Shown: positions 8,165 through 48,445, numbered from the stretch's first letter. The stretch is DNA of 64,000 nt from Gammaproteobacteria bacterium (GCA_963662545.2 CAXXLL010000003.1:1728001-1792000); one strand, 5' to 3'. Program-made: numbers and translations. The notes: generated from the letters alone by a model not told the origin.

Positions 8165-8326
8165 CTAGTGTGCTGTCCCGTGAGAAACTTTCATAATTCG
8201 CTGGTCTTTTTTGCCCCCAGCCGCGCTCCTCCTTGTGTAGAGCCCACTACACGGCGTCATCGCGCCTTGCCAGCGACAAAAAATCCGGCGCGACTTACGC
8301 AACTTTTTCACGGGACAGCACACTAG
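8165..8326. mobile_element. MITE family B between accB and accC
   Basis: Perfect 19-bp IR CTAGTGTGCTGTCCCGTGA / TCACGGGACAGCACACTAG; internal GTGTAG-N6-CTACAC hairpin. Confidence 0.8.
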
Positions 8327-8378
8327 AACTTACCTATAAACTATTCACGTACGCGAAATAATTATTTATGGATTCTAG

Positions 8379-8825
8379 TCACTGGTTAATCATGAACAGA
8401 GATTGGTCATATTCGACCGGCTGTCCGTTTTCTGCGAGGATCGCCGCGATCGTTCCCGCGCTTTCGGCCTCGATGGGGTTCATGATCTTCATCGCCTCAA
8501 TGATGCAAAGTGTGTCTCCGACCTTCACAGATTGTCCGATTTTAACGAAGGGTTGCATGTCCGGCGAAGCCGCTGTGTAGAAAGTCCCGACCATTGGAGA
8601 CTTGATGACATGCCCTGGGTCTACCGGGGCGGATAGGTCGGATGGAGCGCTAGCGGGAGCCGGTACGGTCTCCACCGTCTGCTGCACGGGTGGCGCGGCA
8701 CCGGGCACTGTGAGCGGGTAGCCCCGGCTGATACGTACTGATTCCTCACCCTCGCTGATTTCGATTTCCGCGATCCCTGATTCATTGAGAAGTTCGATCA
8801 GCTTTTTGATTTTTCTAATGTCCAC
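8379..8825 (-). CDS. accB: Biotin carboxyl carrier protein
   Basis: GTG start, [24 protein letters not shown] biotinylation motif. Confidence 0.96.
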
Positions 8826-8900
8826 CTGTCCCCCCGGCGAGCCTATCAGGCCGTCTCTTAATAGGTGATAGCGATTCAAACAACGATAGGAAATCGTTCT

Positions 8901-9350
8901 TCATCTTCTTGATAGACATTCAACCGCCGCCTCGATCGCGAGCTCGTAACCGATGGGACCTAACCCGGTGATGACGCCAAGGGCGATATCCGATAGATAC
9001 GATTCCTTACGGAATGTCTCGCGCGCATGAATATTGGAGATGTGGACCTCGACGAACGGAATTGAGACGCCGAGAAACGCGTCGCGCAACGCCACGCTCG
9101 TGTGGGTATAGGCGCCGGGATTGATGATGACGAGATCCGTTTCATCGGTACCCGCCCGATGGATGCGTTCGATGAGGTCGGCCTCGGCGTTACTCTGGAA
9201 ACAGGCCAGTTCATGGCCTTCTCCCGCGGCTTTATCGACGAGACGCCGCTCGAGATCGCTGAGGCTTAGTGCGCCATACAGATCGGTTTCCCGCTGCCCT
9301 AGAAGATTGAGGTTTGGCCCATTGATCACGAGCAGTTTTGCCAATCCCAA
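8901..9350 (-). CDS. aroQ: Type II 3-dehydroquinate dehydratase
   Basis: NGPNLNLLG, NPGAYTHTS, EVHISNIHARE. Confidence 0.96.
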   Translation of the reverse strand: MGLAKLLVINGPNLNLLGQRETDLYGALSLSDLERRLVDKAAGEGHELACFQSNAEADLIERIHRAGTDETDLVIINPGAYTHTSVALRDAFLGVSIPFVEVHISNIHARETFRKESYLSDIALGVITGLGPIGYELAIEAAVECLSRR

Positions 9351-9459
9351 GCTCCCTTGGACACGGGTTCGACGAAAGGCTGTAAATTAGCACGATTTAG
9401 CGGAAGTTACAAGCAGGATTGGCGATTTTCACGCCAGATCGATGCATAATATCGAAAAG

Positions 9460-45564: not shown

Positions 45565-45583
45565 CCGCCGGTCGAGTTCCGCA

Positions 45584-46546
45584 CTAGTCGACCGGATCGA
45601 GTGGCCGGAGGCTTAAGATGATACCGATCCAGGCGCCCGACCAGCCGAGTCCGCAGGAGACAGCGATCAGCAGGACGGCCTGGACCGCCGAAAATCCTGC
45701 GATCGTGAAGTCGCTCAGGTAGGTTTCAGCGACCCGGGCGACGGGATTCTTGAGTGCCGCAAAGACCGTCTCAACCAGTAGAGCCGCTGCGGCGCCGGCC
45801 AGAAAGCCGTGCATCGCACCGCTATAGAGAAACGGTCTGCGGATGAACGCGTCCGTTGCGCCCACCAGCTTGAGCACCTCGATCTCATCTTGATGTTGGT
45901 GAACCAGCGCACGGAAGGTATTGCCCACGATCAGTAAAGCACCGCCGGCGAGCAGTAAGGCTACGATGAAAACGGCGCGCTCGGCCACCCGCCCGATGGC
46001 GCTCAGGCGGTCGATCCAGGCAAAGTCGACCAGCACGGTGTCGATGGAAGTGTTCGATTCCAGTGCTGCGATCAAACTTTGCGCCCGGTCGGCGTCCCAG
46101 GTGGCGGCACGCGGAACGAGGACAACTACGTGCGGCAGCGGATTGACTTCGTCGTCGGCGATGTCTGCCAGTCCTGAGCTTGCAGCAAATTCGGCAAACG
46201 CATCATCGCGGTGGATGAGCCGTACGCTAGCGACGCGTGAATCGCCGGCCAGTTGCTGCATCAGCCGCTCGGCCGCTCCCGCGTCAACCCCACGGTGAAG
46301 AAACGCGCTCAGGCTTGCCTCGTCGCCCCAGTCCTCAAACAGCGCGTGCTGATTCTGAATGAAGATGTACAGTAAGGCCGGTAAGGCAATGGCGACGGCC
46401 ATGACGGCAATCCCGATAGCGGTCGGTGCCCGGTTTGCGTCCACCTGTTTGAAGCTTTCACCGAGGGCGCGCCAGTGCTGTAAAAAAACCGACTCGGTGC
46501 GAAAACGCCGTGCCCCCTCAGCGGGAGTCGTCCTGCGGATATTCAT
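45584..46546 (-). CDS. ftsX: Cell division permease FtsX
   Basis: NPLP, EIEVLKLVGATDAFIRRPFLY. Confidence 0.93.
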   Translation of the reverse strand: MNIRRTTPAEGARRFRTESVFLQHWRALGESFKQVDANRAPTAIGIAVMAVAIALPALLYIFIQNQHALFEDWGDEASLSAFLHRGVDAGAAERLMQQLAGDSRVASVRLIHRDDAFAEFAASSGLADIADDEVNPLPHVVVLVPRAATWDADRAQSLIAALESNTSIDTVLVDFAWIDRLSAIGRVAERAVFIVALLLAGGALLIVGNTFRALVHQHQDEIEVLKLVGATDAFIRRPFLYSGAMHGFLAGAAAALLVETVFAALKNPVARVAETYLSDFTIAGFSAVQAVLLIAVSCGLGWSGAWIGIILSLRPLDPVD

Positions 46547-47214
46547 GGTGTCGGCAGGGTATCGCTGAGCAGGCTGCCTTCCTTCAGTTCGATAACGCGC
46601 CGGTGACCCTTACGCAATAGCTCGACGTCATGCGTGGCGATAATCATGGTTACGCCGACCTGGTTGAATTGGTCAAATAAAGCCAGGATTTCCTGCGAAA
46701 GCGCGGGGTCGAGGTTTCCCGTCGGTTCATCCGCCAGCAGGATTGTCGGACGATTAACCACCGCACGCGCGATTCCAACCCTTTGCTGCTCACCCGCTGA
46801 AAGCGTATCCGGCGTGGCGCGTTCCTTGTGCAGCAGGTTCACTTTGTCGAGCGCCGCGCGAACGCGTTTACGGATCTCGCGGTGCCTGATCGCCGCGACC
46901 GTCAATGGCAGAGCCACATTCTCGAAAACCGAACGTCTGGGCAACAGTTTGTGCTCCTGAAATATCATACCGATATGCCGCCGGTAGTAAGGGACTTCCT
47001 GCGCGGGAACGCGTTCGAGATTGCGTCCGTCAACAATGACATTTCCACGGCTGGTTCTTTCAATCAGCGCGATCAAGCGCAGCAACGTGCTCTTGCCCGC
47101 ACCCGAATGCCCGGTAAGAAAGGTGTATTCGCCGGCCTCGATAAGCAAGTCGACATTCCGTAAGCCTTGATTACCGCCAGGGTAAGTCTTGGTTACCGCG
47201 CTGAAATGAATCAC
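46543..47214 (-). CDS. ftsE: Cell division ATP-binding protein FtsE
   Basis: GHSGAGKS, LSAGEQQRV, ADEPTGNLD. Confidence 0.95.
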   Translation of the reverse strand: MIHFSAVTKTYPGGNQGLRNVDLLIEAGEYTFLTGHSGAGKSTLLRLIALIERTSRGNVIVDGRNLERVPAQEVPYYRRHIGMIFQEHKLLPRRSVFENVALPLTVAAIRHREIRKRVRAALDKVNLLHKERATPDTLSAGEQQRVGIARAVVNRPTILLADEPTGNLDPALSQEILALFDQFNQVGVTMIIATHDVELLRKGHRRVIELKEGSLLSDTLPTP

Positions 47215-48137
47215 TTTGCGCCGTCCGATAACGTTGTGCCGAAATCTCCCAGCAACGCCCGGGTAAAATCCTCGGCCACGAACGGCTGCAAATCGCGGTC
47301 CTGTTCACCTACGCCGATAAAGCGTATGGGCAGGCCAAACCGTTCGGCCAGGGCGAAGATCACACCACCTTTGGCCGTTCCATCAAGCTTGGTGAGACAC
47401 AATCCAGTGACGTCAACGGCGGCGCAGAATTCCTGCGCCTGGTTGATCGTGTTTTGACCCATCGTCGCATCGACTACGAGGAGTACTTCCTGCGGAGCCT
47501 TGGCGTTATGTTTGGCGATTACGCGTTTGACCTTGACGAGTTCGGCCATGAGATTGTCTTGGGTATGCAGGCGGCCCGCGGTGTCGGCGATGAGGACGTC
47601 AACACCGCGCCTACGTGCCGCCGCGCAGGCGTCGTAAATCACCGACGCCGAATCCGCGCCGGGCGATTGCGCGATGACGGGGACCTGCAGACGTTCGCCC
47701 CAGGTATTCAGTTGTTCCGTAGCGGCCGCGCGGAACGTATCGCCGGCGGCGAGCATCACCGAGCGTCCCTGCGCCTGCAGCATGCGGGTGATCTTGGCGA
47801 TCGTCGTCGTTTTACCGACGCCGTTGACGCCGACGACCAATATCACGAAAGGCGTGTCGTCCGATGAGTCACAGACCAGGGCCTGTTCGCAAGGTTTAAG
47901 GATGGCCGACATTTCGCGACGGATCACGCTCGCTGCCGTATCGTCGGTGCCGATATTGCGCACGCCCTGGATAATACGCGCGGTTGCCGCTACGCCGACA
48001 TCGGCCTGAAGGAGCACGTTCTCGAGTTCTTCCAGCGCCACGGCGTCGACCCTGGCCGACTCGGCAAACAGACGATGGATCCCGCGCGCGAGTCCTTCGC
48101 GCGTGCGGGCAATGCCGGCCTTTAGTCGACGGAACAT
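47211..48137 (-). CDS. ftsY: SRP receptor FtsY (short form)
   Basis: GVNGVGKTT, DTFRAAA, DTAGR, TKLDGTAKGG. Confidence 0.96.
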   Translation of the reverse strand: MFRRLKAGIARTREGLARGIHRLFAESARVDAVALEELENVLLQADVGVAATARIIQGVRNIGTDDTAASVIRREMSAILKPCEQALVCDSSDDTPFVILVVGVNGVGKTTTIAKITRMLQAQGRSVMLAAGDTFRAAATEQLNTWGERLQVPVIAQSPGADSASVIYDACAAARRRGVDVLIADTAGRLHTQDNLMAELVKVKRVIAKHNAKAPQEVLLVVDATMGQNTINQAQEFCAAVDVTGLCLTKLDGTAKGGVIFALAERFGLPIRFIGVGEQDRDLQPFVAEDFTRALLGDFGTTLSDGAK

Positions 48138-48283
48138 AATGCTTTCGGGGGTATTCGCTTACCGGCTCGGCGCTAGTTCAGTGCCTGGCGAAACGGTGTT
48201 GGTCGGGGATTGGGCGTCCGCTGCCATTTAGCTGCGGATTATCGCGTCGATACCGTCCGTGCCCTGTCCTCATCGCTCGTTAG

Positions 48284-48445
48284 GGAACCTCTGAATAAGT
48301 CATGGTGGGTCTGAATGGTTCATGCAATGGTACAGATCAAGGCACGAATCGCCGGCCATAGCGGGGACTATGGGCAAGGTTCGTAACGTAAGGCTCCGCC
48401 ATTTCATGGGCGAGGCAGATGTGCCATGACTTATTCAGAGGTTCC
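48284..48445. mobile_element. MITE family D (162 bp, IS5-like ends)
   Basis: Perfect 22-bp IR GGAACCTCTGAATAAGTCATGG; TTAG duplication (48280-48283, 48446-48449). Confidence 0.85.

Follow-up and report, generated by a model that had tools for sequence, protein, structure and literature searches.

In a 64,000-nt stretch of DNA from a Gammaproteobacteria bacterium (GCA_963662545.2, CAXXLL010000003.1:1728001-1792000; hereafter the window, in which all coordinates count from the first letter), small TA-flanked transposable elements of the miniature inverted-repeat type (MITEs) with differing ends carry a common interior core around a covarying hairpin. The families designated A, B and D, an end type E found at a related locus, and a second core nested in the long form of A are likely to represent a single old superfamily of MITEs that insert at TA, whose ends diverge while a partly structured interior is conserved. 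In its full form our best explanation, to which we assign a probability of about one half, is that the interior of this superfamily was kept for a cis-acting, architectural role in transposition. A preliminary description made from the window sequence had proposed that a module with a covarying hairpin is common to MITE families of differing ends and is carried by several transposase systems. The first part holds for A, B and D, whereas the ends are better described as related variants.

A common core in the MITEs of the window

The sequence TCGYGCCTTG occurs in the window at 8260-8269 (+), 21540-21549 (+) and 48338-48347 (-), three times against 0.77 expected, a number that 1 of 100 shuffled sequences reaches. 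B carries the apex hairpin GTGTAG-AGCCCA-CTACAC (8235-8252) and D, on the minus strand, CCATAG-TCCCCG-CTATGG (48356-48373), and A carries CGGCGTTGC and TCGCGCCTTG. All words and hairpins previously listed for B, D, A and a decayed A copy were found in the window. From end to end, B and D are imperfectly palindromic (70% and 67% identity to their own reverse complements), and their apex hairpins sit exactly at the palindrome centre. Comparison of the window copies with blastn gave a 13-nt exact match between A and B (E ~0.1), a 27-nt match at 70% identity between A and D (E 0.5-0.8) and no match between B and D. Taken by themselves, the window copies would place the shared core barely beyond chance, and its significance is established by the outside copies described below.

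Measured between the flanking TA pairs, D spans 162-164 nt, B 156 nt and short A about 158 nt. The C element had been counted among the carriers as well. Its first copy has GTAG-TATCGA-CTAC only, as described, and both copies are without TA flanks and without the core; because neither of the covariance-model searches matched C, we do not regard it as a member of the superfamily.

Further copies from related genomes

A genome scan with the A end pattern, in a collection that lacks the genome of the window itself, returned 14 loci (numbered with the prefix L), 10 of which come from two related gammaproteobacterial metagenome-assembled genomes (MAGs), one with contigs JAYYZW01... ('Pseudomonadota bacterium') and one with contigs CBDCJB01... 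('Gammaproteobacteria bacterium'). Four loci (two from Legionella, one each from Mogibacterium and Beijerinckiaceae) were chance matches in coding sequence and were discarded. The MAG loci yielded eight more full A copies, two D copies and five B copies, among them one with a decayed 5' part and one that is strongly diverged (B_L007). A new end type, E, was found at L014 12246-12389; this element and the nested copy in long A carry the core and had escaped notice in the preliminary description.

The consensus cores of the families are more alike than the window copies are. The other eight A copies form a proper TTTAG-N5/6-CTAAA or GTTTGG/CTAAAC hairpin, and the left box of the other B copies reads GCGTTRC where the window B has 3 nt missing. 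B_L007 has B-type ends, yet has a 15-nt identical run (CGGCGTTGCTCGTCG) in common with A.

Homology of the cores across families

Judged by sequence comparison, the A and B cores are homologous. An nhmmer profile of A matches B_L007 with E 0.0027 and element E with E 0.006, and the six best non-self matches of the B profile are all A-type or B_L007 cores in register (E 0.0067-0.47). In unanchored local alignments of the interiors, the pairs B_L003-A_L010 and B_L007-A2 reached z 5.6 and z 5.4 (1 of 1000 shuffles each) and a third A-B pair z 1.2; the same alignments gave no signal for D-A, E and C. A sequence-only profile of A and B recovered element E at E 0.039. The D profile found weak matches only (E at least 1.8), 4 of the 14 lying on A cores in the correct orientation.

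A covariance model free of D, built from five A and three B copies only, recovered all three D copies over their full length and on the correct strand (E 6.9e-4, 0.017 and 0.14), and also matched element E (E 0.024) and nested cores (E 0.057, 0.16 and 1.7). With an all-family model, R1, a second, inverted and diverged core was detected inside the extra module of the long A copies at L006 (E 4.5e-4), L007 (2e-3) and L002 (0.034), all three with a clean CATAG/CTATG hairpin; the R1 search of this module in the window copy gave no significant match. Since the E-values of these models are rough, we hold it probable, not certain, that D and E belong to the core-sharing group.

Conservation is uneven along the element. 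Core identity between families is 51-72% (z 2.1-6.8, in a test in which the core ends were anchored), and the first 28 nt of the ends give z -1.1 to 2.4 between families, B versus B_L007 excepted. Among eight long A copies, conservation amounts to 0.93-0.95 in the left box, 0.90-1.00 in the ends, 0.72-0.75 in the loop and 0.48-0.70 in the linkers.

A covarying hairpin at the apex

The cores were aligned with MAFFT, unfitted to structure, resulting in 18 sequences and 73 columns with a mean identity of 68%. At the six hairpin pairs, bases match in 86.7% of 105 cells versus 70.5% in shuffles, and the covariation score is 0.377 versus 0.110; none of 500 shuffles reached either value. When the partner columns were slid, pairing fell to 24-42%. 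By these measures the apex hairpin covaries. Both-sided changes occur at four of the six pairs. Starting from the loop, 17 rows have G-C as the closing pair and B_L007 has T-A, two near-invariant pairs, A-T and T-A, follow, and the outer pairs change compensatorily between and within families, as in B_L001 (GCGTAG/CTACGC) and among the D copies (CCATAG/CTATGG versus CAATAG/CTATTG). The TTTAG/CTTTG arms of window A are unpaired, and the loop, held to be constant at 6 nt, in fact measures 4-6 nt.

RNAalifold adds an outer helix of 3 bp, in which D has A-U and the others G-C (a single event), and gives a consensus energy of -1.95 kcal/mol. The left and right boxes are not mutually complementary. 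In single-stranded DNA folds, the ends of B, D, E and A pair with each other, and the apex hairpin appears in the minimum-energy and the centroid structures (z -5.8 to -8.2). Two A copies have the loop CGGTG and two others have CACCG, and because these are exact reverse complements, the A hairpin has been inverted at least once.

Ends and target site

TA is found on both sides of 14 of 19 elements, counting three D copies after a one-base shift of the boundary. All ends consist of TA, 10-14 variable bases and an A-rich box (CAAAAT, GAAAAA or GAATAA) that lies 12-17 nt in from the tip; moreover, TAGAA...CAAAATT...TGTG is common to the A and E ends and GAACCT to A and D. The ends had been described as completely different, a view that the shared TA flanks and A-rich boxes contradict. 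As the ends are diverged relatives, one superfamily is likelier than a module of unrelated transposase systems. TA duplication and inverted-repeat ends, by which IS630/Tc1-mariner-type MITEs are recognized, are both found here. An IS5-type YTAR target was considered as well, and TA was preferred after the copies had been compared. Repetitive extragenic palindromes (REP) and their inverted pairs (REPIN), which are mobilised by REP-associated tyrosine transposases (RAYT), are short and GC-rich and have neither long inverted-repeat ends nor a target duplication; the present elements, with ends of 20-30 nt and TA flanks, were therefore not assigned to them. In a plasmid collection, whole-element searches with B, D and A gave no matches, and end-only matches in Xanthomonas (beside an IS3 orfA), Caballeronia (in a response-regulator gene) and Aureibacter were dismissed as chance.

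Several arrangements in the MAG loci concern the ends and the apex. At L003 9975-10028 there is a mini-A of 50 nt, composed of just two A ends with the TA flanks retained. Abutting B and A copies share one TA (...CAC-TA-GAACC...) at L006 9840-10264 and L001 9996-10420, with different neighbouring genes, which suggests that later insertions prefer as their target the CTAG that an earlier one has created. A GC-rich REP-like palindrome of the CCGGATTCCGCT.CGCTCCATCCGGGCTAC type sits exactly in the apex loop of an A copy (L002 10070-10165), and a similar REP-like sequence adjoins the mini-A (L003 ~10040-10060).

Proposed role of the interior

According to the explanation we favour, small non-autonomous transposons would insert at TA, as IS630/Tc1-mariner-type elements do, and would have inherited a common interior of about 52 nt that comprises the left box (C)GGCGTTRC, an apex hairpin of 4-6 bp and the right box TCGYGCCTTG, an invariant T-A/A-T step of the hairpin adjoining the loop-closing pair. 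This interior may be of the same kind as that of the Correia/NEMIS elements of Neisseria and of the Cupriavidus, Ralstonia and Eleftheria MITEs. In the ends, the outer 10-12 nt would have diverged, presumably tracking different but related transposases, while the interior was retained. We infer that it was kept for action in cis on the element's own movement. A hairpin or cruciform at the centre would help to bring together ends that are only about 100 bp from each other, and the two boxes could serve as binding sites, either for a bending protein or for some conserved transposase portion, and in this way aid end pairing. A cis-acting role is favoured because conservation follows the element across hosts and sites, the left box matches the ends in conservation, and the hairpin is too weak for a stable RNA. 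Considered separately, a DNA-level role in transposition, for instance in joining two very close ends, is possible, though somewhat short of an even chance. That the ~52-nt core constitutes a portable cis-acting module across Beta- and Gammaproteobacteria, needed whatever the pair of end and transposase, for instance as a bending or cruciform site at which ends 100 bp from each other could synapse, is rather doubtful.

It is usual to define MITE families by the ends and to regard what lies between as filler. In the present elements, conservation of the interior equals that of the ends within a family and exceeds it between families. If our explanation is true, the interior does something for the element and Correia-type elements are not confined to Neisseria, and genomes with both a relative and an autonomous insertion sequence (IS) could reveal the transposase that moves Correia elements.

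A number of results weigh against this explanation. Within the superfamily, the best local alignments of D with B were marginal (z 2.2-2.8), the sequence-only profile of A and B recovered none of the three D copies, and the best R1 match in a Neisseria locus (E 7.4e-4) is not a MITE, which illustrates how rough the model E-values are. The flipped A loop shows that the arms of the hairpin recombine or template each other, so that 'compensated' changes are possible without selection. About 330 kb (the window and the 14 loci) contained no autonomous IS bearing ends of these types, and for this reason the transposase family, presumably of IS630 type, has been deduced from the TA flanks alone. With regard to the betaproteobacterial elements treated in the last section, a profile of the Burkholderiales core gave nothing significant against the window and the MAG loci (nhmmer), nor did the gammaproteobacterial profiles against the betaproteobacterial loci. 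Covariance model R2 matched a Ralstonia element at E 0.44 and left Correia unmatched, R1 with filters off scored the betaproteobacterial elements at 7-9 bits (E 1.3-4.4), and pairwise comparison of A, D and E with these elements revealed no significant similarity.

Alternative explanations

The preliminary description had regarded the core as a possible RNA module, the hairpin and boxes acting as a processing, stability or protein-binding signal in co-transcripts. A covarying stem flanked by conserved unpaired boxes would suit such a role, as would the position of the elements, all copies of which are intergenic and several of which lie in co-directional gene pairs (for example B between accB and accC, A between yidC and mnmE). 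Of nine co-directional contexts, seven have the core antisense to transcription and two have it sense, an open-reading-frame-based count that is not significant; all four window copies have their core strand on the leading-strand template, an observation that repeats the antisense bias in another form. Furthermore, Correia transcripts are RNase III substrates according to excerpts of two reviews (PMC2229807, PMC10969869); in the excerpt of the latter, however, the cut lies in the stem formed by the ends and not in the interior. The stem has 4-6 mostly A-T pairs and the consensus fold reaches only the low energy given above. Rfam gave no match at gathering scores, and at E-values up to 1 it gave two window hits, both unrelated to the elements. 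Both orientations occur, and the conservation, which holds in very different hosts and at random sites of insertion, better fits a role for the element than for the host. Low folding energy, the absent Rfam match and the two orientations weakly disfavour a role as RNA, which we consider unlikely overall.

Other signals were sought in the same elements. No sigma-70-like or terminator-like consensus sites were found inside B, A and D. The only promoter-like site (8389-8361) lies outside B. The invariant TTG of the right box precedes a hexamer that fits TTGACA at 4-5 of 6 positions, but by eye there is no -10 at a distance of 16-18 nt. A coding relic, with the right box read in an IKAR-like way as what is left of a transposase, was likewise given up, since stop codons interrupt the frames in both A and B.

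The core could alternatively be a functionless leftover of a parent IS, its 5' untranslated hairpin and translation start joined by a single ancient deletion to the 3' end of the gene opposite. Many IS elements hide their ribosome-binding site in a hairpin, and the reverse strand of B has AAGGAGGAG directly past the hairpin, just as A has an ATG in CTAAATGAGCGACGAG. These features, a Shine-Dalgarno-like run and an ATG, are not common to the families, however, and the ~330 kb contain no parent IS. A pure relic should drift like the linkers, and the left box is conserved as the ends are, which makes this origin improbable.

A comparably small chance is given to neutral descent or recent swapping of ends, in which the core would have no function and the paired changes would result from templated correction of a quasi-palindrome. 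The flipped loop of the A copies fits such a process, the B and A copies that abut at a shared TA in L006 and L001 offer scope for chimeras, and B and D are young, as their perfect ends indicate. On the other hand, conservation would then not be expected to differ along the element as it does, the end tips are randomised between families at cores still 51-72% identical, and similar cores exist in Neisseria and Burkholderiales. Palindrome correction, moreover, cannot maintain the boxes, because they are not complementary to each other. Finally, a coincidence of short GC-rich words with the centre hairpin of any palindromic MITE, to which the insignificant blastn comparisons between families in the window and the position of the B and D hairpins at the dyad centre could point, is very improbable, being contradicted by the cross-family profile and covariance-model matches and by the greater likeness of the family consensus sequences than of the window copies.

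Element inventory and neighbouring features of the window

Pfam matches identify the window as the replication-origin region of a gammaproteobacterium-like chromosome, of which rnpA-yidC-mnmE marks one side and dnaA-dnaN-recF-gyrB the other; its G+C content is about 58%. It harbours six small inverted-repeat elements, namely long A, A2, B, D and two C copies (Table 1). Over the core half, A2 and A are 78-80% identical.

Table 1. Inverted-repeat elements of the window and their cores.
Feature	Position	Strand	Remarks
A2, short A-type MITE, right end decayed	1408..1565	+	left end fits the A end pattern
A2 core, hairpin GTTTGG-CGTTA-CTAAAC at 1479-1495	1454..1519	+	covariance model 67.6 bits; D-free model 61.5 bits
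B-type MITE between accC and accB	8166..8325	+	perfect 20-nt ends; TA at 8164-8165 and 8326-8327; neighbours from Pfam
B core: left box minus 3 nt, hairpin 8235-8252, right box TCGCGCCTTG at 8260-8269	8211..8275	+	51.1 bits
Long A-type MITE between mnmE and yidC, TA-flanked	21347..21604	+	aligned with 8 MAG-locus copies
A core, hairpin arms mutated (21515-21530)	21489..21555	+	covariance model 63.7 bits
Extra palindromic module of long A	21375..21475	-	second inverted core recognisable by eye alone in the window copy
D-type MITE between ftsY and M16 peptidase gene, TA-flanked	48283..48446	-	perfect 22-nt ends; aligned with 2 MAG copies
D core: ACGTTAC, hairpin 48356-48373, TCGTGCCTTG at 48338-48347	48332..48398	-	D-free model 17.6 bits, E 0.017
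C element, two copies, ends AGCCCGCATATCTCA	31170-31421 and 42786-42956		inverted-repeat element

Among the neighbouring features, an ISL3-family transposase gene (1881-2960) adjoins A2, and an IS with a DDE_Tnp_1 domain (IS4/IS5-type) is present in two opposite-facing copies about 1.4 kb apart (58464-59840 and 61218-62594). A perfect 22-nt inverted repeat, ATTCGCCCGCAAGCGGGCTCCT, with a 19-nt spacer lies at 52424-52486, just downstream of a PF01467 cytidylyltransferase-like gene (51876-52373). A PEP-CTERM protein gene is flanked by direct repeats, one pair of 153 nt with 91% identity and one of 38 nt, at a distance of about 2.1 kb (54521-54848 and 56626-56910). Inside dnaA, at 24535-24615 (-), there is a sub-threshold Rfam match to AsdA, an antisense RNA of dnaA mRNA (39.5 bits, gathering score 52, E 1.5e-4), which may stem from mere conservation of the dnaA coding sequence.

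Relation to Correia elements and other known repeats

The Correia element of Neisseria, also named NEMIS or CREE, contains similar words. Short strings were confirmed in Neisseria papers by text search, and a 107-bp Correia element is printed in the supplement of Delihas 2008 (PMC2229807). By eye, the interior of that element consists of CGTTGC, 12 nt, a GTAC-N5-GTAC hairpin, about 11 nt and TCGTCGCCTTG, spanning 52 nt compared to 50-51 nt here. The apex hairpin has 4 bp with a T-A/A-T step, and by eye order and spacing are those of the present cores. Compared by eye with our 18-sequence core alignment, Correia agrees at all 8 invariant columns and at 8 of the 10 near-invariant ones; the two mismatches amount to one G-C to C-G swap, the loop-closing pair being C-G in Correia and G-C here. 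Both are small TA-flanked MITEs that fold into a long hairpin, and the Correia ends likewise have TA followed by a CAAAA box. The pattern GCGTTGC-N30-40-CGCCTTG derived from Correia, picked after both sequences had been seen, has one window match at 21498-21549 (expected 0.05; 5 of 100 shuffles reach one) and seven matches in the loci, always within cores.

The two kinds of element also differ. The 26-bp inverted repeat of Correia, TATAGTGGATTAA, has no match in the window with up to 2 mismatches, and the A, B, D and E ends are different. The present elements carry extra linkers and measure 139-166 nt (long A 256-266 nt) versus 105-155 nt for Correia, and their hosts are uncultured Gammaproteobacteria, not Neisseria. 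The 50-bp insert of long-form Correia, which includes an IHF site, is not present here, and the closest matches found by eye to the IHF consensus are without the TTR part.

A published primer, used as a query against the plasmid collection, retrieved two N. gonorrhoeae chromosomes in addition to matches in Cupriavidus and Ralstonia. The two Neisseria records, NZ_CP119140.1 and NZ_CP119142.1, are filed as plasmids and evidently are chromosomes of 2.17 Mb. A query with the Cupriavidus core matched 106 records (Ralstonia 95, Paraburkholderia 3, and Cupriavidus, Eleftheria, Neisseria and Streptomyces 2 each), with 16 places in each Cupriavidus and 5 in each Eleftheria record. The elements found on chromids of Cupriavidus metallidurans CH34, Ralstonia spp. 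and Eleftheria terrae are MITEs of 115-120 nt with a Correia-type core, yet with other ends; one Cupriavidus copy has 197 nt owing to an inserted stretch. The ends of these Burkholderiales MITEs vary from genus to genus and directly adjoin the core, the hairpin is GTAC/GTAC, and a CTGGCG...GCCAG helix surrounds the core, as is also the case in family B. A limited literature search revealed no published name for them, the core 13-mer leading to unrelated papers only.

Formal tests of the link gave a mixed picture. A profile of the Burkholderiales core matches Correia elements with E 4.4e-6, 9.3e-4 and 1.8e-3. Local alignments of B with Burkholderiales elements reached z 3.9-4.5 (2-6 of 1000 shuffles). 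In apex-centred global alignments, the four best pairs reached z 3.6-4.9 (0-1 of 1000) and the other B pairs 0.4-3.3, with reverse-complement controls at z 2.4 or less. The link to Correia would accordingly have the form of a chain from Correia to Burkholderiales, to B and on to A, D and E, whose steps appear well supported apart from the middle one, for which pairwise comparison is the only evidence.

The preliminary description had named a match to an already described repeat as the finding that would speak against it. The interior does resemble Correia/NEMIS; a core with other ends, outside Neisseria or in other bacterial classes was not found in the excerpts of the literature on Correia, IS630 and miniature inverted-repeat elements, and excerpts of the reviews (PMC2229807, PMC10969869) name no transposase behind Correia elements. 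RUP of Streptococcus pneumoniae, an IS630-mobilised MITE, is tied to a known IS by similarity of its ends, whereas no partner IS was found in the ~330 kb here, and the excerpt of PMC2229807 on RUP does not report a conserved interior across different end types. In their TA target, inverted-repeat ends and fold into a long hairpin, and with a RUP length of 100-200 bp, the two kinds of element are alike (PMC2229807, in the same excerpt).

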